Source: Bdellovibrionales bacterium (GTDB taxonomy: Bacteria > Pseudomonadota > Alphaproteobacteria > Micavibrionales > JBBKXB01). Taken from it: a stretch of DNA of 56,175 bases. The position numbers and the translations under genes are program-made. How positions within the stretch are numbered: the first letter of the stretch is position 1; each line of letters opens with the position of its first letter. The notes beneath the pieces are model-generated. The model searched no databases and had not been told where the DNA came from. It saw only the letters and a program-made list of their open reading frames with translations. The stretch covers positions 1-56,175 of the forward strand of contig JBBKXB010000066.1 in assembly GCA_037969255.1 (NCBI GenBank). Reading direction: 5' to 3'. Shown in pieces: positions 10,586-52,083 of the stretch.

Positions 10586-10708
10586 AAACACACCTCTTTG
10601 CACGAATTATAGCATAAAATTCACAAAAACCCTAATATTATTATGAAAATGTATAAACTGTAAATTTATAGTTTGACGCAAATTTATAATTACCATGTTG
10701 TGATACTC

Positions 10709-25226: not shown

Positions 25227-25295
25227 TTAATAATGAATGAATATCTCTTATATTTTAACACTCGAAAAATCACAGTTTTGTGATAAACTAATTAG

Positions 25296-31895: not shown

Positions 31896-31901
31896 TCGTA
31901 C

Positions 31902-34182: not shown

Positions 34183-34207
34183 ACTTTAATTCTTATATCA
34201 ATAAAAA

Positions 34208-34238
34208 GCCCTTTGGTTCATCCCGAGGGGCTTTTTTT
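34208..34238 (+). terminator. rho-independent terminator after pilS paralogue 2
   Basis: GCCCTTTGG-(6-nt loop)-CCGAGGGC forms a stem of about 9 bp including 2 G-U pairs, followed by T7 (34232-34238). Confidence 0.75.
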
Positions 34239-34287
34239 ATGGCGCCAAAGTCACTTAAAACGTCTTATAATCTTTACGTTTTATTGA

Positions 34288-34303
34288 TATTTTATGGTAT
34301 AAT
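34288..34303 (+). promoter_or_regulatory. extended -10 promoter candidate (TATTTTATGGTATAAT) for the pilV-like operon
   Basis: TGnTATAAT at 34295-34303, 46 nt upstream of ATG 34349 and downstream of the pilS terminator. Shares a 15-nt identity with 49247-49261. Confidence 0.6.
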
Positions 34304-34348
34304 GGTGAAGCATAAAATATAATTAAAATGGGTGAGATTTAAAACATA

Positions 34349-35908
34349 ATGCGCATGAAACGATACAAAGCCAATCAAGAGCAAGGTGCCAGTATATTTC
34401 TGGGGCTTTTTGCTGTGCTTATTATCGCAGGCTATATCCTCGTGAACGTCAATGTCGACAAAGATCGTATCATTCAAGAGCGTGTGACCCAGACAGCATG
34501 GCTGATCAAACAAGTTTCTGAGGCCGCACGCTTATATGTTCGCGATCAAAATGTGGCTGGCGCCGCCGTTTATCAAAAAACCGCATTATGCACCACGCCG
34601 CGCGCAATCACTGTCAATGAGCTTGTGCTTGCGGGGTATATTGGTGCCAGCATTGGTGAAAAAAATACAGCGCTCACTAGTTTTATTACACCTCTTGATC
34701 AAACCATTCAAATCATCGCCGCCAATTCCAATATTGATTCGAGCGATTGTAGCCCCACCGCTCTGGGTAATGTCGCGGCCACGGCCTACATCATATTACA
34801 ACCTCCCACACAAGGCATTGATAACATCGTGCTCGCGGCTTTGGCAGAAGCGTTAACGGTTGAGGATATGCCCGTTGGCAACCCAATCTTTGATAATTTT
34901 GGCAATAATGTTTCTGATAATTGTGGCGCGAGTCCCGCCACCATTCAATGGGACACGGGCTGTCTTAACAACACGCAATTTTCTTTTTTAACGGGCGGTG
35001 TGCCCTTTACGAATTCATACATGGGTGTGCCGACATGGCTGACATTCCGCGGGGATAACCGCGCTGTGTTCCGTTATGAACAGGCTGAAAATCCAGCCGC
35101 CACACAAATGCAAACCAATTTGCTCATGGCAACCATTGATCAAAATAATGACATAGACACGTGTGCACAGCGCCAATACACAACGACCGATGAATCTCTT
35201 ATTGCCGCACAACCAACCGCCACAAAACAAATCAACAGTGGTGTGTGTAGTGACACTGGTAACAGACAAAACATTAACAATGTCGGCAATTTGACGACCA
35301 ATCGCGTGCTTAACAACGGGTTCACCTCGACAGGCAACACAGCGATAGTGGGCAATGTACGCGCGTTTAATGGCGCCAATGCCATTCAAATGAATGATAT
35401 AAATTTCACGGGCGGGACATCAACCATTACGGTTGCACCGCGCGATCCATTAAGTCCCAACGCACCGCGTGTTGTGATGAACGATGTGACGGCTGATCTT
35501 GTCCAAGCCGATACAGGGAGTGCGACCAACAGTTTTGCCAGCGGGGAAACATCCGTCATTAACGCCTTTAGCGTGAATGGTGGCGGGATCATCATAGACA
35601 ACACAAGTGGCGCTGGACGCGGAGTTCTGGCCAATACTATGGGCGGGACAGCCAATAATGTCACCGTGTCCAATAATGCAACATTTGGAGGCAATACATC
35701 CATCGCCAGCCAAACATCGCTATCTGGTAGCAGTAACATCCCACTGGCCGCGGCGCGGATCAACGCCAATGACGTAACTCTTAATGGTGATATCACAGTG
35801 GGAAATACTTTAACGGTTTCGGGCACTGTGAATACCGCCATAACATCGGTGGGTCAGTGTGTGGGTGATTGTCCAGATCGTTCACCAGATATAGAGCCAC
35901 CATTATGA
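34349..35908 (+). CDS. large pilin-like protein 1 (PilV-position; non-canonical N-terminus, N/T/G/S-rich repeat tail)
   Basis: 519 aa. N-terminal hydrophobic helix QEQGASIFLGLFAVLIIAGYILV (no Glu+5). The C-terminal ~220 aa is low-charge N/T/G/S/A/V repeat sequence ending QCVGDCPDRSPDIEPPL. Confidence 0.55.
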   Translation: MRMKRYKANQEQGASIFLGLFAVLIIAGYILVNVNVDKDRIIQERVTQTAWLIKQVSEAARLYVRDQNVAGAAVYQKTALCTTPRAITVNELVLAGYIGASIGEKNTALTSFITPLDQTIQIIAANSNIDSSDCSPTALGNVAATAYIILQPPTQGIDNIVLAALAEALTVEDMPVGNPIFDNFGNNVSDNCGASPATIQWDTGCLNNTQFSFLTGGVPFTNSYMGVPTWLTFRGDNRAVFRYEQAENPAATQMQTNLLMATIDQNNDIDTCAQRQYTTTDESLIAAQPTATKQINSGVCSDTGNRQNINNVGNLTTNRVLNNGFTSTGNTAIVGNVRAFNGANAIQMNDINFTGGTSTITVAPRDPLSPNAPRVVMNDVTADLVQADTGSATNSFASGETSVINAFSVNGGGIIIDNTSGAGRGVLANTMGGTANNVTVSNNATFGGNTSIASQTSLSGSSNIPLAAARINANDVTLNGDITVGNTLTVSGTVNTAITSVGQCVGDCPDRSPDIEPPL

Positions 35909-37272
35909 TGAAACAACATCCAAAAAATACCAAACTTCAACGCGCCTTTAGTTTATTAGAGGTTCTTTTGGCTGTGGGCATCATGGCGACCATCTTGGCA
36001 ATTGGGACTGTGATCACCACGGATCTTGCGCGTCAAATTGTGAATGAAAAAGCCGCTGGGCAAATGCTCACCCTTCAACGCGCGGGTGAAGAATACGCGA
36101 CCTCTAATTTCAACAAACTTTTAAATTCGGCGGTGGCTGGTAATATTGCCTCGCCGACCTCAAGCCGTGTTGTTAACATCAGCACATTAATATCGGATGG
36201 ATTCTTGCCCAATGGTTTCGAGGCCGAAAACCTCCTCAATCTTGATATGGCGCTCTATTTGAGAAACGCGACCAATATCTCGGGTGTCGCGCCCATAGCC
36301 ACAATTGAAGTGATCACTGTGACATCAGGAACACCCGCCACACCGCGCGGTCAAACGTTTAAATGGATTTTGGACACCGCGCTTTTTGGCGGTGGTAAAT
36401 TAGGTGTTTTAAGTAATATTGGCGCTGGATTTAACAATGTGAGCTTCACCAGCACCAATGGCTCTTGGAATGTTCCCATTGGTAATATTTCGTCTTATAG
36501 CCCCTCTTTGCCCACAGCTTCCAATGATCCTTCTGGCTATATTGCCGCTTATGGGCGCGTGACGAGTGAAGACGTGTTTGATTCGAACGTGCTGTATCGT
36601 ATTCCAATCGCTGGAAATCCAAATCTCAATCGTATGCAAACAGGTCTCAACATGAACAATAATGGGTTGACCGATGTTGGTACGCTAACCGCCGAACAAA
36701 TGAACACGGGCAATGTGAATTTAAACAGCACAGGGCGTTATGCGCTCTCATCCACGGGCACCATGAATTTTGGAGCGGGCACAACATCCATGTCTGGTGA
36801 TATGGTTGTGTACGGTGTTGATCCAGCGGCGGGTAATTCTTTGACCGCAAATTCTGTGAATTTAGGCACAGGTAGCCTTAACGCAGGCTCAATTGCCACC
36901 GATACGCTCAACGCAGGCGCGGACGGTCTTGTGGCCAATAACCTTAACACCGTTTCGGCGACATCTCAGGATTTGATCGCCAATGGCACGTTAAATTTAA
37001 ACAGCGTGAACACAGTATCAACGTCAAACATGCAACTTGGTGGATCATCAGGATCAACAACATTAACGGCTGATAATCTAACCGCGGGCAATCTTGTTGC
37101 GGGTGAAGCCAACGTCACAGGCGGCATGACTGTCACCAATGATGGTATCAGCACGGTCAACAATATGTCGGTTGGTGGGGGCGCCACAGTGCGCTCTCTT
37201 GGCACGAACAAAGCCACATTCACTGATTTGTGTTACACCACGGGCGCAAAGGATGACATTAATGGCTGTTAA
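35905..37272 (+). CDS. pilV: PilV-like minor pilin/adhesin 2
   Basis: ATGA overlap with the upstream stop. Class III-like signal MMKQHPKNTKLQRA|FSLLEVLLAVGIMA (Glu+5). N/T/G/S-rich tail ending LCYTTGAKDDINGC. Confidence 0.65.
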   Translation: MMKQHPKNTKLQRAFSLLEVLLAVGIMATILAIGTVITTDLARQIVNEKAAGQMLTLQRAGEEYATSNFNKLLNSAVAGNIASPTSSRVVNISTLISDGFLPNGFEAENLLNLDMALYLRNATNISGVAPIATIEVITVTSGTPATPRGQTFKWILDTALFGGGKLGVLSNIGAGFNNVSFTSTNGSWNVPIGNISSYSPSLPTASNDPSGYIAAYGRVTSEDVFDSNVLYRIPIAGNPNLNRMQTGLNMNNNGLTDVGTLTAEQMNTGNVNLNSTGRYALSSTGTMNFGAGTTSMSGDMVVYGVDPAAGNSLTANSVNLGTGSLNAGSIATDTLNAGADGLVANNLNTVSATSQDLIANGTLNLNSVNTVSTSNMQLGGSSGSTTLTADNLTAGNLVAGEANVTGGMTVTNDGISTVNNMSVGGGATVRSLGTNKATFTDLCYTTGAKDDINGC

Positions 37273-38620
37273 GAGACTCAAACGCAAACAATACGGCGTA
37301 CAACAACGTGGATTTTCACTGTTTGAAATGTTGCTCACGGTTGGTGTCGCCGCGACATTTTTCATTTTCTTATTTAATATTGGTCAAACCATTGCGCGTG
37401 ATCAAGCCATTCGCGCTTCCGCTTCTTACGTACAATCTATTGATGAAGCCGTGAATGTAATGCTTTCTGATCCAGCGCGTTTCGATGTTCTTTACAACAA
37501 TGTGGTGGCTTCTGGCGGTGTTGCACAAGTCAGTATTGATGCGCTCAAAGGCAATCCAAGTGGCGTGCTAAACGGCTTACCCAATAACCCGATTTTGAAC
37601 AGTGCCTTCCCTGCCATAGGGCCTTTTAGACAAACATATAGTGTTATTTTTAGAACCCCGCCCGTGGTGGGCACAGCGCGCGTGATTGAAAGCTACGTGG
37701 CCAGTCAAACGCTTCTGGAAGACACACTTGTGACACGCATTGCTGGCGCGATTGGTGGAACAGGCGGTGCACTGCGCGATCAATCAACAGTCGCTGGTGT
37801 GAACAATATTCGCGGTGCCTATGGTGGCTGGGTTGCCTCAACAAATAATATTTTAATCAGTAGTTGGTACACAACCATCGCTGGGCAATCCGCGCCAACT
37901 TTGCAAAATGGTGGGTATATTGTGTCTTATAATTATTATGACGTATCACGCATCGCCAAAGATTACCTCTATCGTAACAATACAGGAGTTCCCGCGCATA
38001 ACACTATGTACACCGATCTTTCCATGGGCAGTTATAATGTGCTGGGCGCGGATACTGTGTCAGGCACTGGCGCGTTGACCTCTAGCGAACTTATAGTCGA
38101 GGGCACAACCACATTTGCCAATGCCCCTTCTATCGCGGGATCATTACAATCTGATGGTCCATTAGCACTCGGGTCAATAGGCGCGGCAGGGGGCGCTGGT
38201 ATTCAAATGAGCGCCGCAGGTTCGGACGTTGTTGTGAATAACAACACAAACGCCACGCGCGCTGTTTTTAATAATGCATTCACCACCGATAGCCATACGG
38301 CCAACGCTCTGACAACGCAAGATACGACGATTAATTCTGGTAATTTTAATGCCTCTAACACCAACGGTATCAACGCTTCGGCAGCCAGTGGCGGGTTAAT
38401 TGTGTCGGGCAACGTCAATGTGACCAACCAAGTGCAATCAAGCGCCATCACAACCAATAATTTGACCGCCAATAACGGTCTTGTCGCCACCATTGGCGCC
38501 TCTATATCGGGAGATGTCGCACAAAACTCTGGCACAACTGTGTCCAATGAATATGGGAGTCAAAGTTTGACGCGGTCAACGACTTCGGACTTTCCATGTG
38601 GCATCGGGTGTGGCGAATAA
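37262..38620 (+). CDS. pilV: PilV-like minor pilin/adhesin 3
   Basis: ATG 37262 overlaps the upstream gene by 11 nt. Signal MAVKRLKRKQYGVQQRG|FSLFEMLLTVGVAA. N/T/G/S-rich tail ending PCGIGCGE. Confidence 0.65.
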   Translation: MAVKRLKRKQYGVQQRGFSLFEMLLTVGVAATFFIFLFNIGQTIARDQAIRASASYVQSIDEAVNVMLSDPARFDVLYNNVVASGGVAQVSIDALKGNPSGVLNGLPNNPILNSAFPAIGPFRQTYSVIFRTPPVVGTARVIESYVASQTLLEDTLVTRIAGAIGGTGGALRDQSTVAGVNNIRGAYGGWVASTNNILISSWYTTIAGQSAPTLQNGGYIVSYNYYDVSRIAKDYLYRNNTGVPAHNTMYTDLSMGSYNVLGADTVSGTGALTSSELIVEGTTTFANAPSIAGSLQSDGPLALGSIGAAGGAGIQMSAAGSDVVVNNNTNATRAVFNNAFTTDSHTANALTTQDTTINSGNFNASNTNGINASAASGGLIVSGNVNVTNQVQSSAITTNNLTANNGLVATIGASISGDVAQNSGTTVSNEYGSQSLTRSTTSDFPCGIGCGE

Positions 38621-38679
38621 AAAACGCTTTAATTACTGAGTTGTGCGATCTTAAAAACTCTTTTACACTTATACCCATC

Positions 38680-39549
38680 ATGAAACACGCGCTTCAACTA
38701 TCCTCTTTATTTTTGATCACTTTGGTGTTTGCCACCCAAGCTGATTTTGCACATGCACAAGCAAACTTGCCTGAATTCACAGTTATTGACCTTGGTGAAC
38801 TTAATCTTGATACACGTCAAACGGGTGAAAAAAGCTACAAAGAGAAAATTGAACAAGTTGATAATGATCAAATGCGTATGCATCTCTTGTTGCAAAATGA
38901 GATCACAATGCTTGGCGCTTTGCAAAGCTGGCAAACACAAGTGAGCGAATTAGAATCCACTTATGCGCGCGCGGGTCTACCGTTTACGCAGCCCGAACCA
39001 CCCCGCACAATTTGCGAACAAATTCCGAGCAATTCAATTTGCAATGAAGCCTATCCTGATCTCGCACCTAAACCTAAAAAAACGGATGCGAAAAAAATCA
39101 GCAACGCACTGGCTGTATCAGGTGTGATCACCCCACAACAAAGCGCTGTGCCAGCGCCCGTCATGGCACGCGCCACCAATTATGAATGGGCATCCATTTC
39201 TTGCGTGATTGACAATTGTCGAGCGGTGCTTTTGGACAAAGCTCAAAATCTACGCTTTAGCGTTTTTAGCGGTGAAACCATAGACGATGGCATCATGATT
39301 ACAAAAATTACACCCTTTGGTGTTACTGTGAGTGAAAAGGGAAAAACGATTAAATTGCGCTCATCTGCACCTAGCATAGATACGGACACCGCATCCGTTG
39401 CTCCTGTGACAACAAAAGATCAACTTGTGAATAAATTATCTGATTTGCCCGCCAACGCATTGGACAATGTTGAACCTGTTAAACCTATCGTTATTGATGA
39501 TGGATCAAACGCCCCAAGCGCACCGCTTGGCAACACTGGCTTATTTTAA
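38680..39549 (+). CDS. secreted protein in the pilM position (PilP/GspC-HR-like C-terminal domain)
   Basis: Start ATG 38680 gives signal peptide MKHALQLSSLFLITLVFATQADFAHA. The C-terminal FSVFSGETIDDGIMITKITPFGVTVSEKGKTIKL resembles small pilotin/PilP-type beta domains. Last gene of the pil block, as pilM is in PAPI-1-type clusters. Confidence 0.4.
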   Translation: MKHALQLSSLFLITLVFATQADFAHAQANLPEFTVIDLGELNLDTRQTGEKSYKEKIEQVDNDQMRMHLLLQNEITMLGALQSWQTQVSELESTYARAGLPFTQPEPPRTICEQIPSNSICNEAYPDLAPKPKKTDAKKISNALAVSGVITPQQSAVPAPVMARATNYEWASISCVIDNCRAVLLDKAQNLRFSVFSGETIDDGIMITKITPFGVTVSEKGKTIKLRSSAPSIDTDTASVAPVTTKDQLVNKLSDLPANALDNVEPVKPIVIDDGSNAPSAPLGNTGLF

Positions 39550-39551
39550 AT

Positions 39552-40559
39552 TTAAAGAAAATCTAAGAGACTCAAAGACGCCGCCGCAGCCGTAGCGGCA
39601 AAACTTGCCTCAAGCTGAATTTGAATGTTTTGCAAGCGCACCGCTGTTTCCGTGATGTCGACATTTTCAACATTATCAACCAAAGTTTGCAAAGTTGAAG
39701 TATCAAAAACATGTTGCTTTCTCACTTCGGCAATCGTGGCTTCGCTCGCTTTGAGTGTCACCAAAGTGGCGTCTATGCCTTCTGAACTATTATATAATTT
39801 GGTCGAAAGCGTTTTGATCACTGTTTGTAAATCATCTTTTGAGGGCACATCCCCACCACTTGGAATGGTTATAGCCGCCATAATTTCGGACACGACAAGC
39901 ATGGATTTAATGGATGCATTATTGGCTTTAACGGTGTAATCAACTTTGAAATTTTCATCAGCCGTCACAGCCACGTTGCCAGCCGATATAACTTCGGCGC
40001 TAAATCCGACATCGGCATCCGTATATGTTTCAAATTTGGCCATAAATTGCGCCGTTGTCAGCGTGCCATCAAGCCAATCACTCACATCATCAGCGACCTG
40101 TACGCTAAAATTATCGCGGCCTTCATATGGTTTTGCTGTGAAATCTGAGCCTGCAAATACGTAACGTCCGTCAATTTGTTCATTTAAATTTCCGCTCGCC
40201 ACTTCAAGTAATTTAGAGGCATAACTTTTAAGTGAGGCTATATCCGTAGGACCATTAATATCTTGGAGATGAAACCCTTTTTGAAACCCTTGGACTTGAT
40301 TTTGAATAAGGCTAAGAGAATTGTCCGCCGCACGAATGCGGGTTGTCGCACGATCAATGTTGTTAATATATTGGCCACTTTCTTGGATGCCATTGCGGAA
40401 ACGAAGCGAGGATAAAGCATCGTCGCCCAATCCTTCAAAACGCGTTGTTTTTTTGCCAGAAGATAACGCCCGTTGCAAATCACTAAATTGTGCATTGAGT
40501 TTATCAAAACGATTAAGGCTCGTTGTAAGTTGGGCGAGCGCTGAAACACCTGTTGTCAT
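39552..40559 (-). CDS. flgL: flagellar hook-associated protein 3 FlgL
   Basis: 335 aa with flagellin-like N-terminal and C-terminal helices (…AVRLQNIQIQLEASFAATA…). Lies directly downstream of flgK. SD AAGGAGA. Confidence 0.75.
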   Translation of the reverse strand: MTTGVSALAQLTTSLNRFDKLNAQFSDLQRALSSGKKTTRFEGLGDDALSSLRFRNGIQESGQYINNIDRATTRIRAADNSLSLIQNQVQGFQKGFHLQDINGPTDIASLKSYASKLLEVASGNLNEQIDGRYVFAGSDFTAKPYEGRDNFSVQVADDVSDWLDGTLTTAQFMAKFETYTDADVGFSAEVISAGNVAVTADENFKVDYTVKANNASIKSMLVVSEIMAAITIPSGGDVPSKDDLQTVIKTLSTKLYNSSEGIDATLVTLKASEATIAEVRKQHVFDTSTLQTLVDNVENVDITETAVRLQNIQIQLEASFAATAAAASLSLLDFL

Positions 40560-40602
40560 TTAATTGGTCTCCTTTAAATTCTTATTTTAAATTCTTATCT
40601 CA

Positions 40603-42714
40603 TTATATCGCAGCAAATAATTCATCGAGCATTTCAATGCTGGATGTAATCACTTGTGCATTGGCGCTATAGACGCGTTGGAACGCGACCAAATTAGCAA
40701 TTTCATTATCTATATTCACGCCTGATTCGTTGCCCAATTGTTCCTCAATGGTTTGCCTAAAGGCTTCCTCAGAGTTGAAACTGCTACGAATATTTGCCGT
40801 TTCGCCTGATTGACTGGCAATAAGACGTTGGCCATAGGATACCAAGCTGGTGGCACTAAGAACTTGTCCAGAAATATCAGCTCCTGGTCCTAAATTGGTT
40901 GTACGGAACGCATTGTGTGGGTTTTGAATAATTTTCACGCCTATGGATGCAAGAGGTTTACCAAGACCATCAGCCAAATTAATATCAGCGCCATAGGTTG
41001 TGTTAATATTTAAAAATCCATTGACATCTAAAGTGGCTTCAACACCCGCCACAGCGTTTAATTTCGCCAATAATTGCGTGCTTGTATCTGTTGCTGTGAT
41101 CGCAATATTGACCGCCGCATTATCATTGATCTGAATAGAAAAGCTTGGGTCTTTTGCCGTTGTCGTGCCAGCTGTGATGCCCAAATCCTCTAGGCCAGCT
41201 GCGCCAATATTATTGTCTGTGATGATGATGTCTTCACTGCTTTCAAGCACAAGACGCCCCGTCGCAGACAAACTGGCTAACCCTGCAAAACTTGCATTAA
41301 TCGTATTAACCAAATCAGCCGCTGTATCGCCAGCGCCAATTGTGATGTTCACAGGTGCACCGCCACCCAATTGAAGAGTGAATGTGTCATTGCTGCCTGG
41401 TGTAATTCCATCAGCGGCATCCAATGTTAATAATGCTTGGATATTAGCGCTGCCAATAAATTTCGCACTTTCATCAAGTGATAATGTCGTGAATAGATTA
41501 GCCGCACCAGTGACATCTAAATCGACACTGCCCAGTCCCGTTTCAGAGCGCGTGTCGCCGAACGTAAATCTGTTAATGCGATCAATAATAGTGGTTGATC
41601 CGTTTGAAATGGTTTCGCCTTGGGTGCCCAAACGCAATAGACTTGGATCAGAAATAATTGCTTTGTTCACTTGCATGATACGAGAATAGCCAGCGTAACC
41701 TGTGGCGCTAGGCGAATCCGTGTTCGCAGGCACAAGACCGCCATTATCTGTAAACAGGCGTACACCTTGTTCGTCAAAACGTTGCGATACTTTTTGCGCA
41801 ATTTCATCCAATTCAGCTTGATAACGCGGAATAAGATCATCGCGTAAATCCACAAGACCGCCTAAACGTCCACCCAAAGCGCGCTCTGTAATATCAATAT
41901 TCATCGTGGCATTATTGGTTTGTGTGTTGGTGATGAAAATACCCGCGACACTTGTTGGGTAAGTATTTGTTGCGCTTAATGGCGCAGGGTTGAACACCAA
42001 TTTACGCGCTTGCGTATCAGCCAATAAGTCACCCTCTTGGGTTTGCACCACCGTGCGACCATCCGTTGTGGTGAAGTACGAAATATCGAGCTGTTCAGAA
42101 AGTTTAAGCAATATCAAATCGCGCTGATCATCGAGAGAGGCTGTTGATTGACCCACATTAAGGCGCGTAACAATATCATTATTCACGGCAACAAAGTCTG
42201 TCAAAAGACTGTTGATTGTGTTGACGCTGTCTTGCATCTCGGTTTGCGCTTCATTGCGAAGCGATGTGTATAAAGCGCTGGTGTCGTTGATACGCGACGC
42301 GAATATGCGCGCTGTATTTACCGTTTGGCTCAATAATTGAGCTGAATTTGGTTCATCTGACAATGCGAGGAAATTATTATTCAAACCTTGCAAAAGACTT
42401 GGTAGAGAATTTTCAAGCGCTGGATCACCGTGGAAAATTTGGATTTGATCAAGGAATTTGAGTTGTGCTTTTGTGTTACTCGCCAGCGATGTTTGCGTGA
42501 ATAGATCAAGCTGGAGCGCTTGGTCGACACTGCGTTGAATTTCGTTAACGCGTACACCAGATGTCGCACCCGCCACCACAACGTTCGTTTGTGACAGAGT
42601 TTTGCGCGTATAGCCTTCGGTTGTGGCGTTGGCAATGTTGGATGAGAGCAAGCCAACTTGTGCTTGCGCTGTGCGTAGGCCCGATAGGGCGATGTTTAAT
42701 GAATTACCAGTCAT
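40603..42714 (-). CDS. flgK: flagellar hook-associated protein 1 FlgK
   Basis: 703 aa. N-terminus LNIALSGLRTAQAQVGLLSSNIANATTEGYTRK and C-terminus EIANLVAFQRVYSANAQVI are the FlgK rod/hook-family signatures. Confidence 0.87.
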   Translation of the reverse strand: MTGNSLNIALSGLRTAQAQVGLLSSNIANATTEGYTRKTLSQTNVVVAGATSGVRVNEIQRSVDQALQLDLFTQTSLASNTKAQLKFLDQIQIFHGDPALENSLPSLLQGLNNNFLALSDEPNSAQLLSQTVNTARIFASRINDTSALYTSLRNEAQTEMQDSVNTINSLLTDFVAVNNDIVTRLNVGQSTASLDDQRDLILLKLSEQLDISYFTTTDGRTVVQTQEGDLLADTQARKLVFNPAPLSATNTYPTSVAGIFITNTQTNNATMNIDITERALGGRLGGLVDLRDDLIPRYQAELDEIAQKVSQRFDEQGVRLFTDNGGLVPANTDSPSATGYAGYSRIMQVNKAIISDPSLLRLGTQGETISNGSTTIIDRINRFTFGDTRSETGLGSVDLDVTGAANLFTTLSLDESAKFIGSANIQALLTLDAADGITPGSNDTFTLQLGGGAPVNITIGAGDTAADLVNTINASFAGLASLSATGRLVLESSEDIIITDNNIGAAGLEDLGITAGTTTAKDPSFSIQINDNAAVNIAITATDTSTQLLAKLNAVAGVEATLDVNGFLNINTTYGADINLADGLGKPLASIGVKIIQNPHNAFRTTNLGPGADISGQVLSATSLVSYGQRLIASQSGETANIRSSFNSEEAFRQTIEEQLGNESGVNIDNEIANLVAFQRVYSANAQVITSSIEMLDELFAAI

Positions 42715-42725
42715 GCATCAGATAT

Positions 42726-42741
42726 TGCAAAACACGTGCCA
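42726..42741 (-). promoter_or_regulatory. sigma-54 (-24/-12) promoter of flgK
   Basis: The minus strand reads CTGGCACGTGTTTTGCAA, which fits YTGGCACG-N4-TTGCW. GG is at 42740/42739 and GC at 42728/42727. The GC lies 13 nt upstream of the flgK ATG (42714). Confidence 0.8.
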
Positions 42742-42753
42742 GAATCAATTTAA

Positions 42754-42773
42754 GAGCCGGTCATAACCGACTC
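42754..42773 (-). terminator. hairpin between the 548-aa gene stop and the flgK promoter
   Basis: GAGCCGGT-CATA-ACCGACTC on the + strand. The 8-bp stem has a C-A mismatch on + that becomes G-U on the - transcript. A/T tracts lie on both sides, and the U tract is better on the + strand. Confidence 0.4.
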
Positions 42774-42795
42774 TTTTATTTAAATTTTTTAAAAA

Positions 42796-44442
42796 TTAAT
42801 TGGACGCGCCAGATCGAACACGTGCTTCGAGCGCATCACGGCGATCTTCAAGGTCATTGGACAGCATCGCCGCCAATAACATTTCGATACGCTCAAGTGC
42901 ATAAAGCGTGTCTTTTTGAAGACCAGACAGTTCACCCAACATAACCGTTTGTGTCGCCATATGAGCAGCATTATCCTCAGCTACACTCTGATCGAGATAA
43001 TTGGTTGAACGATAAGCCTCAACCTCAACATCACGGCGAACACGCGCTGATGGATGAATGGGTTTGTCTATGTCAACGCCATATACTTTTTCCCAGTTCG
43101 CCGCAAAAGCCTCTTCTGCTTTTTTAGCTTTTTCCTTATCTTCACCAAAAGATTGTGGTGTACGGCTCGCGATTTGCGAATTAAACACAGACGCTAATAA
43201 ATTAGATGAGCTAAGCAAACGGCGCGTCTTAGCAAATAATTCACGCGCGGCTAGGTCACCTTCACCATTGTCATTTCCTTGGACTCGTTTCAAGAAATTA
43301 AGAGAAAATGGTGAAAATGGCGCTGGCAACATATAATCACGAATGAGATAGGCAGACGCCAAATCCAAAGGTTTCACAGCTTTATCAGCATACATTTTTT
43401 CCCAGCGCTCATCTTCTTTTTCCGAGCAATATCGCATCGCTGCAGAACTCAGGATAAACTTTCCGTCGGCCGTTTCGTTTGTACAAGGATAGGTTGAAAA
43501 AATAGGCTTATCACTCATCAATTGATCAGTACGCATATCCATACCCGCTTTTGGATTGCCAGCTATACCTTTAATGTCTAATTTTTCACCGGCCCCCAAC
43601 CATGCTTGATCTGTGATATAACGTGCACCACCTGTGTCGTCTTTACCAAGCACCGCTTGGGCGATGTCATTATACCAAGACAATGGTCCCGCCGCGCCTG
43701 GTGCACCCAAGTCCGCGTTGCTTTTTGCCGCGATCTCTTCAGCGGCTTCATTTTCAATTTCTGTCTCGTGTTTGGACGCCGTATCTTTCAGCGGTTTTTC
43801 CTTAGCATCATCACCGCCACCTGAACCACCTGTACCTGCCGTGACAATTGGCCCAGTACCTCGCCCCCGTACAGGCTCACGTATAGCCCCCGCATTATCA
43901 GATATTTCTCCACGCCCTTGGGCAATACACCAACCTGAAAGATCACTTTGATATTTACCACGAACCGCAACTTCGGTGTTTGCTTCTTGAAGCGCGCGCG
44001 CCGCCGCATACTCGGCCTCTGCTAAAGCCGCCGCGCCGCCCAATTCAGCCATTGTGCCCGCTGCATTATTATTGATTATATCAGCCGCTAATTTTTCATC
44101 GCGTTCGGCTTCCCGCTTTTCAATGCCAAGCGCACTACGAATGGACTTATCAAATCCTTGAATGGTGGCGGTGATTTGGTTTTTAATTTCAACGACCGTT
44201 TTTATCGCTTGTACAACTTGCAACGATTCAAACTTTTGAATGGCCGCTACAATCGCAGCGTCACCTATGAGTACTGGCTTTACGTTATTTTTTGCCGATT
44301 GCTCTTGTTGTTCGACAACTTGTTTATTTGTGTCATCCAACGCGCTAAAGCCTGCGGCCTGCGCAGTAGATATAATCGACGTACTGGCCAATAAAGCCAC
44401 AATCGCAAAACTCGATATAAATTTAGTCATAAATCTCATCAC
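42796..44442 (-). CDS. hypothetical secreted protein (coiled-coil/Ala-rich N-half, Gly-rich linker)
   Basis: 548 aa. Signal peptide MMRFMTKFISSFAIVALLASTSIISTAQA and linker TGGSGGGDD. A relationship to IcmX/TraW is possible, but I cannot verify it from memory. Confidence 0.45.
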   Translation of the reverse strand: MMRFMTKFISSFAIVALLASTSIISTAQAAGFSALDDTNKQVVEQQEQSAKNNVKPVLIGDAAIVAAIQKFESLQVVQAIKTVVEIKNQITATIQGFDKSIRSALGIEKREAERDEKLAADIINNNAAGTMAELGGAAALAEAEYAAARALQEANTEVAVRGKYQSDLSGWCIAQGRGEISDNAGAIREPVRGRGTGPIVTAGTGGSGGGDDAKEKPLKDTASKHETEIENEAAEEIAAKSNADLGAPGAAGPLSWYNDIAQAVLGKDDTGGARYITDQAWLGAGEKLDIKGIAGNPKAGMDMRTDQLMSDKPIFSTYPCTNETADGKFILSSAAMRYCSEKEDERWEKMYADKAVKPLDLASAYLIRDYMLPAPFSPFSLNFLKRVQGNDNGEGDLAARELFAKTRRLLSSSNLLASVFNSQIASRTPQSFGEDKEKAKKAEEAFAANWEKVYGVDIDKPIHPSARVRRDVEVEAYRSTNYLDQSVAEDNAAHMATQTVMLGELSGLQKDTLYALERIEMLLAAMLSNDLEDRRDALEARVRSGASN

Positions 44443-44525
44443 CCTTTATTGTCAGTCTGTATCATCAATATTTAACAACACTTTTGTCTTTGTTTTTTTT
44501 AATTTTTTAAAAGACTTATCCCATT

Positions 44526-44541
44526 ATCATACCATAAAATT
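44526..44541 (-). promoter_or_regulatory. extended -10 promoter candidate (AATTTTATGGTATGAT) for the 548-aa gene
   Basis: The minus strand reads AATTTTATGGTATGAT (TGnTATGAT), 84 nt upstream of ATG 44442. Shares the 12-nt core ATTTTATGGTAT with 34289-34300 and 49248-49259. Confidence 0.55.
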
Positions 44542-44580
44542 CGTAAAATCACTCTAAAAAACTTTCATAAAATCGTAAAA
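44533..44580. repeat. imperfect direct repeat CATAAAAT(T)CGTAAAA x2 in the divergent promoter region
   Basis: Copies at 44533-44548 and 44566-44580 start 33 nt apart and differ by a single T indel. Each contains a GTAAA pentamer. Confidence 0.7.
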
Positions 44581-44594
44581 AAAGGCAAAATGAC

Positions 44595-44603
44595 TGTTAT
44601 AAC
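44595..44603 (+). promoter_or_regulatory. extended -10 promoter candidate (TGTTATAAC) for the icmL operon
   Basis: TGnTATAAC ends 26 nt upstream of ATG 44630. No good -35 element. Confidence 0.4.
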
Positions 44604-44629
44604 TTGAAAAAATAGGTAAGCTATTGGTC

Positions 44630-45403
44630 ATGAGTGACGATGAATTCAAAGATGTATTGGGTGATGATTTCGGCAATGCGCCCGAAACAATGGCTGAAAA
44701 AGCCCCAAAAACTAAGTCTAAAAAGCTAAAACCCACGCCTGAAAATGGTGATAAAAAAACCTTAGCTCAAGACAAAACGATGCTTGGACGTCTCGAATCA
44801 GTTGTCGTTCGTAACAATTATTACCGTGATGGGTATCGTATGTTGCTCAATGTGGCAGTAATTGAAAGTTTTGTGATTATCGCGCTCGTATCTGCGCTTG
44901 TGCTTGTGCTTGTGGGTGTACGTCCTCAAACGTATTTCTTTGCCACCACCGAAGACGGTCGACTTATTCCTATTGTGGCGCTTGATCAACCCAACTTAAG
45001 CGCGCCCGCCATTGTGTCTTGGACAGCCCAAGCCACCAGTGAAACCATGACATTTGGGTTCCATGATTATCGTCGTCGCCTCCAAGAAGCCTCTCGTCAC
45101 TTTACACGACGCGGTTGGGAAAGCTTTACCCGCGCCCTACAAACGTCTGGCATTATTGATGCCATCACCACAAATCGCCAAGTGATCACCGCCACACCGC
45201 GCGGTGCGCCAACGCTTATATCTGAAGGTATAGTCAATGGCCGCTATGAATGGCAAATTGAAGTGCCAATGTTAATTTCCTACGAATATGGTTCTGGGTC
45301 TAAACAATCACAACTAACACTTCGTTTATTGGTCGTGCGCGTTCCGCAACTTGAAAATGCAAATGGCGTTGGTATTGAACAGTGGATTGCCTATAACGGG
45401 TAA
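44630..45403 (+). CDS. icmL: T4BSS inner-membrane protein IcmL/DotI (TraM-like)
   Basis: About 257 aa, single TM (IESFVIIALVSALVLVLVGV), then the conserved periplasmic IcmL-like domain (YFFATTEDGRLIPIVALDQPNLS...TFGFHDYRRRL...). An alternative TTG start is at 44624. Confidence 0.75.
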   Translation: MSDDEFKDVLGDDFGNAPETMAEKAPKTKSKKLKPTPENGDKKTLAQDKTMLGRLESVVVRNNYYRDGYRMLLNVAVIESFVIIALVSALVLVLVGVRPQTYFFATTEDGRLIPIVALDQPNLSAPAIVSWTAQATSETMTFGFHDYRRRLQEASRHFTRRGWESFTRALQTSGIIDAITTNRQVITATPRGAPTLISEGIVNGRYEWQIEVPMLISYEYGSGSKQSQLTLRLLVVRVPQLENANGVGIEQWIAYNG

Positions 45404-45486
45404 TGCGGTTATGATGCCATCAATAAAAGGTCATTTTTCTCTTAATTATAATTGGTATATATAAAGTGCGTGTGTTACATAAAAAT

Positions 45487-46569
45487 ATGAATAATTTGAG
45501 TTACAAAACGAAGATTTTTTCGCTGGTTTTAACCAGTGCGCTGTGCATGGCCTCTACTGCAATCGCGCAATCAGACCCGCTTTCTGGCAATAGACTCAAT
45601 GGTCAAGACCCAGCGCCCAATAGTGTGGCCGCCGTACCAAACAGTAATAGTAACGCTGTGCCGCCCCCTGCGCCAGGTGGCGGTGTCTTAAATGATGGTG
45701 AAATTCCTGCGATTTCTGTTGAGTTATTAGCCTTAACACCCGAAGAACAACAAGAACTTGCCCTACAAAATGCCCGTGAGAAGATATTTGACAACACACT
45801 CACGCAAACATTACCGCTTGAGCCAGAAGAAATTAGAGAAGTTATTGACCGCTTTGAACAAACCACCAAGGCTGTTGAGCAACCTTTTGGTAACATCACA
45901 CCAAAAGCGGAAGTGCGCGTCTCCACAATTAATTTAGAACCCAGCGCCACACCTGAAATTATTCACCTCGCACCAGGTCATGTGTCTTCAATCACGATAT
46001 TAGATGCCACGGGGCAACCATGGCCTGTGGCTGATGTGAGCTGGGGCGGTGATTTTGAAGTTCAAACCCCACAAAATGGTGGGCATATTATTCGTGTTTC
46101 TCCGCTTGGCGGGTATAAAGTGGGCAATATGTCGCTTTCTCTTGTTGATTTACCAACACCAGTGACCTTCACATTACAAACACAACCCGACCGCGTTGAT
46201 TACCGCTTTGATGCACGTATGCCCATTCCAGGGCCAAATGCGCTTATTCCTGTGATTGAAACTCCCTTACAAACCCAAGCGGGTGATGGCTCGTTAATAT
46301 CCATTCTTGATGGCGTATCACCGCTCGGCACAACATCCTTAACTGTTTCAGGTGTTGATGGCCGTACATCCGCTTATAAAAACGGTGATCGCGTGTTCGT
46401 ACGCACGCCATTAACGTTATTATCGCCCGCGTGGAGTGAGCAAGTCGCCTCGGCCGACGGGATGACCGTTTACGTGATCCCAGACGCGCCTGTATTATTA
46501 TTGTCTGATAAAGGACGCATGGTACGTGCTTCTTTGTCTGATATTCCGAATGAAGCCATTTTAGAGTAG
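45487..46569 (+). CDS. icmK: T4BSS outer-membrane core protein IcmK/DotH (TraN-like)
   Basis: Start ATG 45487 gives a signal peptide ending AIAQ. About 360 aa, beta-rich C-terminal domain. Position between icmL and icmE. Confidence 0.7.
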   Translation: MNNLSYKTKIFSLVLTSALCMASTAIAQSDPLSGNRLNGQDPAPNSVAAVPNSNSNAVPPPAPGGGVLNDGEIPAISVELLALTPEEQQELALQNAREKIFDNTLTQTLPLEPEEIREVIDRFEQTTKAVEQPFGNITPKAEVRVSTINLEPSATPEIIHLAPGHVSSITILDATGQPWPVADVSWGGDFEVQTPQNGGHIIRVSPLGGYKVGNMSLSLVDLPTPVTFTLQTQPDRVDYRFDARMPIPGPNALIPVIETPLQTQAGDGSLISILDGVSPLGTTSLTVSGVDGRTSAYKNGDRVFVRTPLTLLSPAWSEQVASADGMTVYVIPDAPVLLLSDKGRMVRASLSDIPNEAILE

Positions 46570-46579
46570 AAAAGAAGAT

Positions 46580-47914
46580 ATGAGTAACGAAGACGATATT
46601 TTTGACGATGATTTCAGCGATTTCGGCGATACCGACGGCGAATTCAATGATGGTGACGCTGGTGATGGCGCCAAAAAATCTTTATTAGATGTCTGGAACA
46701 GCAACCCACTCGTTAAAATTGGGATTATCGCTGTGGTTCTTGTTGTCGGTTTGGGCAGTGTTTATGCATTCGTATTGAGTGGTGATAAAGACCCTGAACG
46801 ATCACGCCTTGGTAGCGCGGTGAACGATTCTGAGGCGCCGGGTCAAGTTGTCTCAGAAAACTTTGCTGATGCTTTGGATGAACGTAACCAACAAAATCTT
46901 GAAGCCGCTTTGGGCAATCGTAATGTATCCTCGATCCCTGTGCCCGTGAATCGCGGTGATAATGATTTGCAATTTGATGGCACTCAAAATATTCAAACCG
47001 AAGACCCGCTGGCGATTTGGCAGCGTGAAAATCGTGAACCTGACACCGTCCTTGCACAGCCAGAGCCATTGGGCGAACAAATTATTCCAGAGCCATTGAT
47101 TTTACCGCCACCACCACAACAAGTGGCGCTCCCTGAAGAAAGTATCCAAGGTCTCAACCAAGCCATTGGCAATCAAATCCAAAGCATTTTGGCCAATCGA
47201 CAGGTGAAACCAGGTCAATATCTTGCCCTTAATACTGAAACCGCTGATGGTGGTATCATAGGTCGTTCCCGCGCTGGCGCTGAACAAGCTGGTCTTTTAG
47301 AAGGCGGCAACAACAATGATAACCAGCGTGTTGAGGAAATCGTTGTTCCAGCTGGTACAATTCTCTATGGGCAGATTTTAAATGAAGCCAACAGCGACAC
47401 ACCAGGGCCTATTTTGGCACAAGTGCTCTCAGGCCCCGTGGCTGGCTCTCGCTTCATTGGCGAATTTGAACAACGCGAAGAAAAACTGATCATCAGCTTT
47501 AACACCGCCGTGGTTAAAGGCATAGGACGTCCGATGAGCGGGATTGCCATTGATCCGGCGACCACAAGCCCAGGCCTTGCCACTGATATTGATCGCCGTT
47601 ATTTCCGCCGTATTCTTTTGCCAGCCGCGGCTGAGTTTGTTCAAGGATTAGGTTCTGCTTATTCCGAGCAACAAAGCCAAGTCTTTACCAGCGGCGATGT
47701 GATTGTCACCAACACGGACAAATTAAACACCAAAGAACAATTTGCACGCGGTGTTGAACGTGGCGCTGAACGTGCAGCCAATATATTAGAAGAAGACGGT
47801 GATCGCCTCCGTGCGCTGATACGCGTAGAAGCGGGCACACCCATCGGTATCATCTTAACAGAACCAATTTTAAAGGCGGATGACGATATAGCCATCTCGT
47901 CCGAAATTAGATAA
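46580..47914 (+). CDS. icmE: T4BSS core protein IcmE/DotG (TraO; VirB10/TrbI-like C-terminus)
   Basis: 444 aa. Acidic N-terminus, one TM, Pro-rich linker (LILPPPPQQVALPEE). VirB10-like domain (VPAGTILYGQILNEANSDTPGPILAQV...IAIDP...). Confidence 0.75.
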   Translation: MSNEDDIFDDDFSDFGDTDGEFNDGDAGDGAKKSLLDVWNSNPLVKIGIIAVVLVVGLGSVYAFVLSGDKDPERSRLGSAVNDSEAPGQVVSENFADALDERNQQNLEAALGNRNVSSIPVPVNRGDNDLQFDGTQNIQTEDPLAIWQRENREPDTVLAQPEPLGEQIIPEPLILPPPPQQVALPEESIQGLNQAIGNQIQSILANRQVKPGQYLALNTETADGGIIGRSRAGAEQAGLLEGGNNNDNQRVEEIVVPAGTILYGQILNEANSDTPGPILAQVLSGPVAGSRFIGEFEQREEKLIISFNTAVVKGIGRPMSGIAIDPATTSPGLATDIDRRYFRRILLPAAAEFVQGLGSAYSEQQSQVFTSGDVIVTNTDKLNTKEQFARGVERGAERAANILEEDGDRLRALIRVEAGTPIGIILTEPILKADDDIAISSEIR

Positions 47915-47929
47915 AAAGGGAGCTATAAA

Positions 47930-49162
47930 ATGGCTGACAATATGAATGATGACATAGACAACCAAGTTGATGATCTAGATTTTTCTGATCTTGATTTGGG
48001 TGATGAGTCCTTTGAAAGTGGTGATTTTGATGATGGTGACACGAATAGTGAAGTCACATCTGAGAAAAAAGATTACACCTCATATATTGTATATGGGTTA
48101 ACAGGGCTTGTGGTCTTGGGTATTGCCGCATGGCAACTGGATTTATTTGGCAGTAGCACACCGGAACCATTCCGCGCTGATGACGTGCCTATGAATGATC
48201 AAATGAACAATCAATCTGCTGACCTTTTGCCTGGATCCAATGATCCTTTTAATGTGCTTGGCACTCCTGATCAACTTCCTACACAACAAACAGCGCAAGA
48301 CGATTCTAACAATCCATTGATCTTTGATGCTATGCAACCTGCTGATAGTATGTCGTCCGATACGTTATCTGATGAGGACGCTATGGCTATGGCGAATGAA
48401 CAAAGCGCAGATTTCATCCCTGCACAGAACAACCCCACGCCTACTTTAGAGGGCGACACGCTGCCAATGCCACAACAGCCCGATGTTCTTCTTACTGATA
48501 CAGCCACGCCTACCCCTGCAGAGGCTATGGTTGACGCCCCTGATACTAACAATGAAACGGCTTTTGTTGCCGAACCAACCATTGAAACTGAAAAACCTCT
48601 TCCTACAGCAACGCCTTCAAAAACCGCTAGTATAGGAAACAGTGATGTGAATGCGATCATGACAACACTTGATGCCATCACAAAACGTCTCGATACAATT
48701 GAAACGCGCCTTGAAAACACTGATAACACACCAGCACCAAGCAAAGATATTAATGACTTGCAAAAAGCGATGGTGGCTTTGGAATCTAAACTTAAGACTG
48801 TTGAGAAAAAGGCCGAAGATAAACCTAAAGTGACCAACGCGCCTGCTCAAACGACAGTTTCTAAAAAAGCATCCGTTAAAAAAGCGTCCGTTAAAAAGAA
48901 AAGCACATCTAAGTGGGATCAACCCTACGATGGCGGCGCAATTTTGGATAAAACAACATCTGTTGCCAGCGCTACGACGACTTCAAGTGGTCTATACTCA
49001 TTGCGTGCAGCCCAACCTGGTAAAGGTTATATTGACGATGGGTCAGGCGCGATATTAGAGGTGCGTGTTGGTACAATCATACCAAATATGGGGCAAGTGA
49101 CCTCCATTTCAGACAATAATGGTCAATGGATGGTGATGACCACGCAAGGCGCTATAAAATAG
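47930..49162 (+). CDS. icmG: T4BSS protein in the IcmG/DotF (TraP) position
   Basis: 410 aa. Acidic N-terminus, one TM (IVYGLTGLVVLGIAAW), long P/T/A/D-rich linker, small C-terminal beta domain. The assignment is mainly positional. Confidence 0.45.
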   Translation: MADNMNDDIDNQVDDLDFSDLDLGDESFESGDFDDGDTNSEVTSEKKDYTSYIVYGLTGLVVLGIAAWQLDLFGSSTPEPFRADDVPMNDQMNNQSADLLPGSNDPFNVLGTPDQLPTQQTAQDDSNNPLIFDAMQPADSMSSDTLSDEDAMAMANEQSADFIPAQNNPTPTLEGDTLPMPQQPDVLLTDTATPTPAEAMVDAPDTNNETAFVAEPTIETEKPLPTATPSKTASIGNSDVNAIMTTLDAITKRLDTIETRLENTDNTPAPSKDINDLQKAMVALESKLKTVEKKAEDKPKVTNAPAQTTVSKKASVKKASVKKKSTSKWDQPYDGGAILDKTTSVASATTTSSGLYSLRAAQPGKGYIDDGSGAILEVRVGTIIPNMGQVTSISDNNGQWMVMTTQGAIK

Positions 49163-49246
49163 GATATATTTCTTATACCAAGCCATAAAAACCACTGTTT
49201 TTCATAATTATTACGCCAATGGGTGTTTTTTAGTACAAATTACATG

Positions 49247-49262
49247 TATTTTATGGTATAAC
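49247..49262 (+). promoter_or_regulatory. extended -10 promoter candidate (TATTTTATGGTATAAC) for the icmC-like to icmB genes
   Basis: TGnTATAAC at 49254-49262, 18 nt upstream of ATG 49281. 15-nt identity with 34288-34302. Confidence 0.55.
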
Positions 49263-49280
49263 TGATGCTTAGGGTGTGAA

Positions 49281-50897: not shown

Positions 50898-50921
50898 AGC
50901 TAAGGAGGAGGAATAAATCTT

Positions 50922-51317
50922 ATGCTTAAAAAACTAAATCTACTAGGTGCGCGTCTTTCGGCGGTAGTCATGAGCACAACTATACTTATGACAGCTGGTC
51001 AAGCGCTTGCTCAATCTGACGTTAATGACGTTATTGTCCAATCAGGTAGCAACTTGAAAAACGTTGGTGACCTTGTGAATATTGCCGCTTATGGTGGTGG
51101 TGCTGTTCTTACAGCCACAGGTTTGCTGAACTTGAAAAAACATGCGAGCAACCCATCACAAAATTCTTTGCGTGATGCTGTTGGTCCTGCTGTTGTTGGT
51201 GTTGCCCTATTGGCCTTCCCGTCAGCCGCTGGTATTTTGACAGATTCAACATTTGGCGAAACAAGCACAAATCCAGGTTACACAAACAACGCGTTTGACG
51301 CTAACTTCGGAGGCTAA
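50922..51317 (+). CDS. icmD: T4BSS small membrane protein IcmD/DotP (TraR-like)
   Basis: 131 aa with a signal peptide plus two Gly/Ala-rich TM helices. Size and position match IcmD. Confidence 0.5.
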   Translation: MLKKLNLLGARLSAVVMSTTILMTAGQALAQSDVNDVIVQSGSNLKNVGDLVNIAAYGGGAVLTATGLLNLKKHASNPSQNSLRDAVGPAVVGVALLAFPSAAGILTDSTFGETSTNPGYTNNAFDANFGG

Positions 51318-51325
51318 TATTAGCC

Positions 51326-52015: not shown

Positions 52016-52083
52016 TCAAAAAGAGGCTGGATAGCCTTTAATCCCCTGTTGCCCTTATAATCATGCACGTATAGAATTGCACA

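Follow-up and report, generated by a model that had tools for sequence, protein, structure and literature searches.

The 56,175-nt stretch of DNA analyzed here (the window, which is contig C66 of a 1.41 Mb assembly of 105 contigs with 43.5% G+C) carries a Dot/Icm-like type IVb secretion system (T4BSS) together with a type IVb pilus cluster, and a nearly identical word of 12 to 15 nt precedes three of its transcription units. The question raised by this locus is why the same word should stand before a pilV-like operon (site 1), an operon that begins with an icmC-like gene (site 2), and a gene for a secreted protein on the opposite strand (site 3). The original prediction was that the word marks a locus-specific promoter class, or a promoter overlapped by a regulator site, that coordinates the pilus adhesin and secretion operons. 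Our analysis indicates that the three sites are very probably functional promoters, and comparison with related sequences suggests that two of them are ancient. The kind of promoter is one already known, the extended -10 promoter with a -16 element, whereas a locus-specific regulatory class is weakly supported and co-regulation is unproven.

Three Intergenic Sites Share an Extended -10 Promoter Element

The 15-mer TATTTTATGGTATAA occurs exactly at positions 34288-34302 and 49247-49261 of the plus strand, and the minus strand from 44541 to 44526 reads AATTTTATGGTATGAT. The 12-mer core, ATTTTATGGTAT, is present three times in the entire assembly. All three copies lie within one 15 kb stretch of the window, and each is intergenic and directed at a gene. 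When up to two mismatches to TATTTTATGGTATAA are allowed, four occurrences are observed in the window compared to 0.2 expected. On re-reading, the coordinates, sequences, and orientations first given for these sites are all correct, including the distances of 46 nt from site 1 to the ATG at 34349 and 19 nt from site 2 to the ATG at 49281. The weaker relatives listed for icmL (TGTTATAAC), icmK (TGGTATATA), and hpf (TTATGGTTAAAC) are likewise present, and a close relative missing from that list, AATTTTATGCTATAA, is found on the minus strand at 10607-10621.

At each site, a TG dinucleotide precedes the -10 hexamer by a single base, giving TGG-TATAAT at site 1, TGG-TATAAC at site 2, and TGG-TATGAT at site 3. 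The conserved part as a whole consists of T-purine-T-G (TATG at all three sites and TGTG at site 2 of the sister species described below), one base that is G or more rarely A or T, and TAT[A/G]A followed by a final base, which is T except at site 2, where it is C, A, or G. Site 1 (TATAAT) and site 3 (TATGAT, in nine of nine genomes) have both A-11 and T-7. The -35 elements had been described as poor, and indeed the sites have neither the ATTGACAT box that is common in this genome nor a match to TTGACA of at least four of six positions at a spacing of 16-18 nt. A scan that requires a -35 box misses all three.

Based on these features, we consider it probable that the three sites are independent promoters that function without a -35 box and are read by the housekeeping sigma factor RpoD. 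Their sequences show, in order, a short A/T run (about -22 to -18), the -16 element TRTG with the extended -10 TG at its end, G-13, and a TAT[A/G]A[T/C] hexamer. Sites 2 and 3, but not site 1, additionally have a T-tract (about -42 to -37) that might act in a manner resembling an UP element. The shared 12-15-mer would then arise because each site lies near one degenerate consensus, TTTT-RTG-n-TATRA. A conserved Shine-Dalgarno (SD) sequence and start codon, and at site 3 also a 5′ hairpin, are located just downstream, which fits a transcription start site shortly after the hexamer. For site 2, the SD sequence AGGGTG at 49271-49276 suggests a leader of about 13 nt.

Judging from its position, site 1 would restart transcription past the pilin terminator to express the pilV-like minor-pilin/adhesin genes. 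Site 2, again from its position, would start transcription of the genes that follow icmG (icmC-like, D, J, and B) or boost it. Site 3 would drive a probably monocistronic mRNA that encodes the secreted 544-aa protein and carries the conserved 5′ hairpin.

Two of the Probable Promoters Are Conserved in Distant Relatives

Relatives of this locus were found by protein searches and contig look-ups, and all share the gene order of the window (overall 46-62% G+C, with proteins 22-69% identical). They comprise a sister species whose proteins are 69% and 66% identical (loci L013, L083, and L116) and seven farther relatives with 52-62% G+C and proteins 22-45% identical (L017/L018, L085+L088, L086+L089, L087+L090, L117, L118, and L119). 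A pattern scan of metagenome contigs with the motif added only the sister species. A pattern scan of a genome contig collection yielded 25 matches in unrelated taxa, a number of the order that chance would produce (about 17 by our estimate). A search with the IcmC-like protein of a species genome collection, in which the same family is not represented, revealed no close relatives. An IcmC-like gene is carried by 40 of 40 order-level relatives, at no more than 38% identity, and no promoter of this type was found in those order-level relatives that were examined.

Conservation is very strong at site 3, where TTTATGGTATGAT is invariant in nine of nine genomes and a tract of four to six T residues ends 19-20 nt upstream of TATGG in each of them. 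The downstream proteins of the window and the GC-rich relatives, in contrast, share only 22-31% identity. The retention of an invariant 13-nt block despite such divergence indicates strong purifying selection. The intergenic region before the corresponding gene of L087 is 72 nt long and is filled by the site 3 element, leaving no space for another promoter.

Site 2 retains T[A/G]TG[G/A]TATAA in seven of seven genomes, with the variants TATGGTATAAC (four genomes), TGTGGTATAAA (sister species), TATGATATAAA (L090), and TATGGTATAAG (L117). Here a tract of five to eight T residues ends 17-20 nt upstream of TRTG at every orthologous site, and the SD sequence AGGGTGTGA starts 8-10 nt 3′ of the hexamer. 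Thus, a T-tract is located 17-20 nt upstream in all 16 instances of sites 2 and 3 (seven plus nine), and the TG of the extended -10 is retained in the same 16. In about 100 kb of DNA from the relatives, T[AG]TGGTAT[AG]A occurs only at the places orthologous to sites 2 and 3, and the looser pattern T[AG]TGnTAT[AG]A is likewise confined to these places in three relatives added later.

Site 1 behaves differently. In every relative, the pilin terminator is followed by a -10-like element, but the TRTG form is found only in the sister species (CATTTTATGTTATAAT). The remaining relatives read TCTGATATAAT, GGGGTATCAT, or CGTGTATAAT, such that the position is kept and the motif is lost. The pilin-terminator T-tail of GC-rich relatives is located about 40 nt upstream of the pilV -10 element (L085:4115-4224, L086:6641-6751, L087:9872-10001, L118, and L119). 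Because this is the position taken by the T-tract at sites 2 and 3, one T-run may double as a terminator tail and an upstream promoter element.

In the sister species, each 12-mer carries a single change (G to T at -13 of site 1, TATG to TGTG at site 2, and A to T at the first A of site 3), and the other sites and relatives vary at each of these positions as well. Across the relatives, the changes in the core (TATG to TGTG, and at -13 A or T in place of G) are those that an extended -10 element tolerates. The ATTTT flank reads AAAA, AATT, or TTTT in the relatives, and so it remains A/T-rich without conservation of sequence.

This conservation also bears on whether the likeness of the three sites could be a chance resemblance within A/T-rich intergenic DNA. 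A 15-mer that occurs twice in 56 kb had been judged unlikely by chance, but such a repeat is not rare per se: about nine repeated 15-mers are expected across the whole window, and 40 are observed. Within the 103 kb of intergenic DNA in the genome, chance alone should produce about 50 different 12-mers that occur at least three times and about 48 15-mers that occur at least twice. However, in the 3.1 kb of intergenic DNA in the window, the probability that any 15-mer is common to two different regions is ~0.03, and that any 12-mer is common to at least three is ~0.008. The statistics for motif sharing are therefore suggestive, modest rather than overwhelming, and comparative conservation is the stronger evidence. 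Given that every site faces a gene and that two of them are invariant over seven to nine divergent genomes, a chance origin for the three-way likeness is extremely improbable, and for sites 2 and 3 the conserved sequences have already refuted it.

The Same Element Is Used Elsewhere in the Genome

If the motif were dedicated to this locus, it should be absent from unrelated genes. The exact 12-mer is indeed restricted to the locus, as noted above, but the degenerate form TTTWRTGNTATRA occurs eight times genome-wide, and all eight copies are intergenic and directed at genes. About half of these (four to five of eight) precede unrelated genes, which encode a class-III aminotransferase, a Usg-family protein, a 96-aa open reading frame (ORF), and a 154-aa secreted protein. 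Conversely, other T4BSS and pilus operon starts of the window (dotD, pilL, icmL, and icmK) lack the motif. By the refuting condition set with the original prediction, a similar frequency of the motif upstream of unrelated genes, the degenerate copies count in part against locus specificity. The consensus TTTT-RTG-n-TATRA is also used at unrelated genes, and no locus-specific factor is needed for the three sites to share the word.

More generally, T[AG]TGnTATAAT occurs eight times in the genome and is intergenic each time, and in perfect intergenic TGnTATAAT sites the -13 position is most often G (8 of 20). The dominant promoter style of this genome, as judged from recurrent words, is a different one. 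The extended -35 sequence (A/T)ATTGACATA is the commonest recurrent intergenic word (for example, at window positions 55646-55653, C7:7907, C39:9779, and C99:6266). The sequence ATTGACAT is present in 80 copies, of which 48 are intergenic, and is usually followed 16-18 nt downstream by a weak -10. This ATTGACAT-type -35 style is distinct from the TRTG class that lacks a -35 box. The three sites lack ATTGACAT and are missed by a -35 scan, and thus they appear to represent a second promoter style, presumably independent of a -35 box, that is not limited to this locus.

Two side observations were made during these searches. At four strong extended -10 promoters (window 25284-25298, C22:2400-2419, C39:5886-5908, and C21:8326-8345), the ATG is located only 6-8 nt after the -10 hexamer. 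The genes concerned are icmT (ATG at 25296, 6 nt), the 96-aa ORF, the class-III aminotransferase, and a GNAT acetyltransferase, and from this spacing their mRNAs may be leaderless. In addition, a perfect palindrome, CTTATGGTATAAGATACCATAAG, near a contig end (C39:11455-11485) holds TTATGGTATAA on both strands and may be a terminator or an operator.

Are Additional Factors Needed to Explain the Conserved Sequence?

Several observations weigh against RpoD-read extended -10 promoters as a complete explanation. Four of the eight TTTWRTGNTATRA sites are in the window, which holds only 3% of the intergenic DNA of the genome. A leave-one-out position weight matrix built from 47 other extended -10 sites contains less than 3 bits upstream of the TG and does not rank the three sites at the top, and the probability that a generic extended -10 site reads ATTTTA-TG-G is ~0.001. 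The genome has the layout of a T-tract plus TRTG almost nowhere but at sites 2 and 3, and TATGG is wholly invariant at site 3, including positions -17 and -13, which exceeds the rules for extended -10 promoters of the Escherichia coli type. Finally, site 2 retains A-11 but carries C, A, or G and never T at -7 in seven of seven genomes, which is unusual for a sigma-70 -10 element. The last observation suggests either a deliberately weak promoter or the use of another register, in which TATGGT would supply A-11 and T-7. The TGTGGT sequence at site 2 of the sister species speaks against TATGGT as the true hexamer. Together, these points leave a minor chance that a further shared factor also acts at the sites. 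We had also considered the generic consensus alone as an explanation, and this was set aside because the weakness of the matrix upstream of the TG leaves the ATTTT flank not fully explained.

One possibility is that a dedicated trans-acting factor binds within these promoters as well, such as an activator at the T-tract/GGATGGAAA near -40 or a reader of TATGG. We regard this as doubtful, although it can account for the invariance of TATGG at two sites in up to nine genomes (including -17 and -13), the fixed 17-20 nt distance of the T-tract, the conservation of GATGGAAA beside the site 3 T-tract in seven GC-rich relatives, the near uniqueness of the bipartite pattern, the confinement of the exact 12-mer, and the persistence of the non-consensus hexamers TATAAC and TATGAT. 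However, the motif lacks the dyad or direct-repeat symmetry of a typical regulator site, and sites 2 and 3 have no upstream sequence in common apart from the T-tract. The unconserved ATTTT flank, the presence of the degenerate motif upstream of unrelated genes, and its loss from site 1 in farther relatives also argue against such a factor, and no DNA-binding protein was recognized among the genes of the locus. The corollary that a dedicated factor co-regulates the icmC-D-J-B operon and the 548-aa gene, plus the pilV operon in this lineage, is similarly questionable.

A bolder version of this idea is that TATGG-TAT[A/G]A with its fixed T-tract is the recognition site of an undescribed factor, either a dedicated activator or one of the four sigma factors of the extracytoplasmic function (ECF) type in this genome, with atypical specificity. 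We consider this unlikely. If true, the icmC-D-J-B operon and the secreted protein (5xx aa) would form a small, ancient regulon in an uncultured, T4BSS-bearing family of alphaproteobacteria.

MucR-type proteins control type IV secretion genes in some alphaproteobacteria, and the A/T-rich promoter islands could in principle be targets of a nucleoid-associated silencer of the MucR/Ros type, with silencing and counter-silencing of the secretion locus, in place of a sequence-specific motif, as what the sites have in common. These islands (T-tract, A/T run, and TATGGTATAA) are kept in genomes with 57-62% G+C, and the host is alphaproteobacterial, as indicated by a CtrA equivalog above the curated cut-off. 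Yet binding driven by composition does not predict the base-by-base invariance of 13 nt, and no MucR homologue turned up, none having been sought. The proposal is purely inferential and is compatible with RpoD-read promoters; we judge it quite unlikely.

Highly improbable is the remaining alternative, that the sites belong to another sigma factor or to a known box. The grounds for raising it are an rpoN gene in the window, a site 2 sequence that reads TGGTAT-N5-ATGCT, genes in the genome for a CtrA equivalog and for four sigma factors of the ECF type, and an ACCAT sequence on the opposite strand of the motif. Sigma-54 was rejected because, of the three sites in the window, only site 2 has GG-N10-GC. 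Sites 1 and 3 lack the GC at -12, and the site 2 orthologues have CC or GG in its place. CtrA was rejected because no site has TTAA-N7-TTAA, which occurs twice in the window, both times elsewhere, compared to 1.8 expected. The opposite strand of the motif, TATACCAT, matches the CtrA sequence TTAACCAT at six of eight positions. Elements of the GGAAC/CGTT type expected for ECF sigma factors are absent from the sites. A tandem OmpR/PhoB/PmrA-like box was also rejected, since the spacing of its TTTTAY half-sites is inconsistent (9 or 11 nt) and the half-sites lack conservation. A local direct repeat considered in the same context is less well preserved in the sister species and missing from the GC-rich relatives. 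The aligned sites show neither a TTAA-type PmrA box nor a conserved CpxR repeat of the GTAAA type, with no dedicated scan run for these two consensus sequences. The window has no Rfam match at gathering thresholds, and a literature search for the motif string returned only papers on animals, insects, and symbionts that appear unrelated from their titles.

The Site 3 Gene and Its Leader

An alignment of orthologues and the SD spacing favor a start of the 548-aa gene at the ATG at 44430, giving a protein of 544 aa, rather than at the GTG at 44442 (548 aa). Accordingly, site 3 is 96 nt upstream of its gene and not 84 nt as reported earlier. Site 3 had also been counted among three operon starts of the locus, but it heads a gene for a secreted protein that is not a recognized T4BSS component. 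The protein has no sequence match in Pfam, NCBIfam, or the PDB, and its AlphaFold2 model (predicted local distance difference test score of 44) is too poor for a fold search.

Minimum free energy (MFE) folds place the leader hairpin at the same position in all six leaders tested (the window, L013, L017, L085, L086, and L087). Compensatory changes distinguish their stems (GUCCU/AGGAU, GUCCUUU/AAAGGAU, and GUCUUU/AAAGAC), and the SD sequence 3′ of the hairpin, GGGTGAGG, is invariant. This stem-loop may stabilize the mRNA or take part in translational control.

A near-consensus sigma-54 element, TGGCACGTGTTTTGCA, is located 13 nt upstream of the flgK ATG, which suggests that flgK-flgL is a separate unit of the RpoN type. 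Together with a hairpin at about 42752-42775 of the minus strand, 3′ of the 548-aa gene, this element indicates that site 3 probably drives a single gene only. In L117 (positions 233-5077), flgK-flgL has the opposite orientation from that in the other genomes, and the site 3 gene is still divergent from icmL with its promoter intact. Therefore, the conserved unit consists of this gene, its promoter, and icmL rather than this gene and flgK.

Gene Context and Host

The coordinates of the features discussed are collected in Table 1. The terminator after the second pilin gene divides pilin transcription from the pilV operon, and an equivalent G+C hairpin with a T-run is present in all relatives. 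The icmL extended -10 element, which does not share the upstream features of the three sites, appears as TGTTATAAG in the sister species.

Table 1. Coordinates of promoters, genes, and other elements in the window
Feature	Position	Strand	Remarks
Site 1 promoter	34288..34303	+	A/T run ATTTT; TATG 34293-34296; G 34297; -10 hexamer TATAAT 34298-34303
Site 2 promoter	49247..49262	+	TATG 49252-49255; G 49256; -10 hexamer TATAAC 49257-49262
Site 3 promoter	44526..44541	-	TATG 44536-44533; G 44532; -10 hexamer TATGAT 44531-44526
T-tract GTTTTTTAG, site 2	49225..49233	+	20 nt upstream of TATGG; follows weak hairpin 49213-49226
T-tract GTTTTTTAG, site 3	44554..44562	-	19 nt upstream of TATGG; in divergent region shared with icmL
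Fourth related promoter AATTTTATGCTATAA(T)	10607..10621	-	precedes unrelated gene for 154-aa secreted protein (10121-10585)
Extended -10 TGTTATAAC of icmL	44595..44603	+	without TRTG; without A/T run
Weaker relative TGGTATATA (icmK)	45453-45461		
Weaker relative TTATGGTTAAAC (hpf)	9515-9526		upstream of hpf
TRTG-type extended -10 TTTTGTGATAAACT	25276..25289	+	upstream of icmT
Leader stem-loop (GUCUUU...AAAGAC)	44486..44515	-	5′-proximal in site 3 leader; from MFE folds
Sigma-54-type element TGGCAC-N5-TTGCA	42726..42741	-	immediately before flgK
rpoN	8004-9473		
hpf	from 9704		
uvrD	12621-14870		
dotD, dotC, dotB	21982-24540		
icmT	from 25296		IcmT/TraK family assignment
Type IVb pilus operon	25700-32960		TcpQ-like, secretin, PilO, ATPase, PilR
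Two pilin genes	from 32947 and from 33637		
Intrinsic terminator (hairpin and T-tail)	34205..34239	+	3′ of second pilin gene
pilV-like operon, four genes	34349-39549		headed by site 1
flgL	39552-40559	-	
flgK	40603-42714	-	
Secreted protein, 544/548 aa	42796-44430	-	headed by site 3
icmL, icmK, icmE, icmG	44630-49162		
icmC/TraQ-like 538-aa gene, icmD-position gene, icmJ, icmB	49281-55137		headed by site 2

The host is an alphaproteobacterium, because the genome encodes a CtrA equivalog (367.8 bits compared to an NCBIfam cut-off of 350) and a Usg-family protein, and because the best named relatives of its UvrD are from alphaproteobacterial metagenome-assembled genomes. Its sigma repertoire consists of RpoD, an RpoH-like protein, four ECF-like proteins, and RpoN. 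This alphaproteobacterial genome (CtrA equivalog at C40:22948-23640) presents a Dot/Icm-like T4BSS that is fused to a flgK-flgL pair and to a type IVb pilus cluster of the IncI kind. The exact T4BSS/pilus/flgK-flgL gene order is found in at least eight other metagenomic lineages with 46-62% G+C (loci L013, L017, L085-L090, and L117-L119). A review of the Holosporales yielded nothing on T4BSS.

Comparison With Known Promoters

Extended -10 (TGn) promoters of the sigma-70 type with a TRTG -16 region have been described in Bacillus subtilis and other Gram-positive bacteria, and extended -10 promoters are also known in E. coli. The sites examined herein resemble these promoters in having TG one base from a TATAAT-like hexamer and preceded by T plus a purine (TATG or TGTG), in lacking a usable -35 box, in the A/T-rich spacer beside the TG, and in varying within TRTG-n-TATAAT. 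They differ in their alphaproteobacterial host, where this style is not the textbook form, in the invariance of G-13 and T-17 at site 3 and the consistent absence of T at -7 of site 2, and in the fixed T-tract near -40 at sites 2 and 3.

UP elements are A/T tracts at -38 to -59 that are contacted by the C-terminal domain of the RNA polymerase alpha subunit. The tract of four to eight T residues at about -42 to -37, held at a fixed distance in the 16 instances of sites 2 and 3, is reminiscent of such elements. However, it is a pure T-tract rather than an AAAAAARNR proximal subsite, and its role as an UP-like element is putative. At site 2, the tract may equally well represent the tail of a weak terminator that follows icmG.

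In Legionella pneumophila and Coxiella burnetii, icm/dot promoters are controlled by PmrA and CpxR. The similarity to the sites of the window is that an upstream element adjoins the -35 box or takes its place and that an internal promoter is located within the icmG-C-D-J-B region. In contrast to those promoters, the sites have no tandem TTAA- or GTAAA-type repeats, the host is an alphaproteobacterium rather than a member of the Legionellales, and the conserved part is the -10 side rather than a response-regulator box.

Implications for the Secretion and Pilus Locus

What remains of the original prediction is that the sites look like genuine promoters. Sites 2 and 3 leave footprints in relatives whose proteins are only 22-45% identical. 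The claim of a locus-specific class or regulator site is at most weakly supported, given that the conserved part, T[A/G]TG-G-TAT[A/G]A with a T-tract upstream, consists only of generic RNA polymerase contact elements, that unrelated genes are also headed by it, and that the motif before pilV is lost farther out. No new regulatory mechanism is revealed by these findings.

Instead, the genome is seen to use two promoter styles, one with a ATTGACAT-type -35 box and the other with a TRTG extended -10 and no -35 box. For an uncultured alphaproteobacterial family, the results provide a usable map of the predicted transcription units in a Dot/Icm-like secretion and type IVb pilus locus, with an internal promoter before the icmC-like gene and a separate pilV-like promoter after the pilin terminator. 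In addition, the very strongly conserved promoter and 5′ hairpin mark the secreted protein encoded downstream of site 3 as functionally important.

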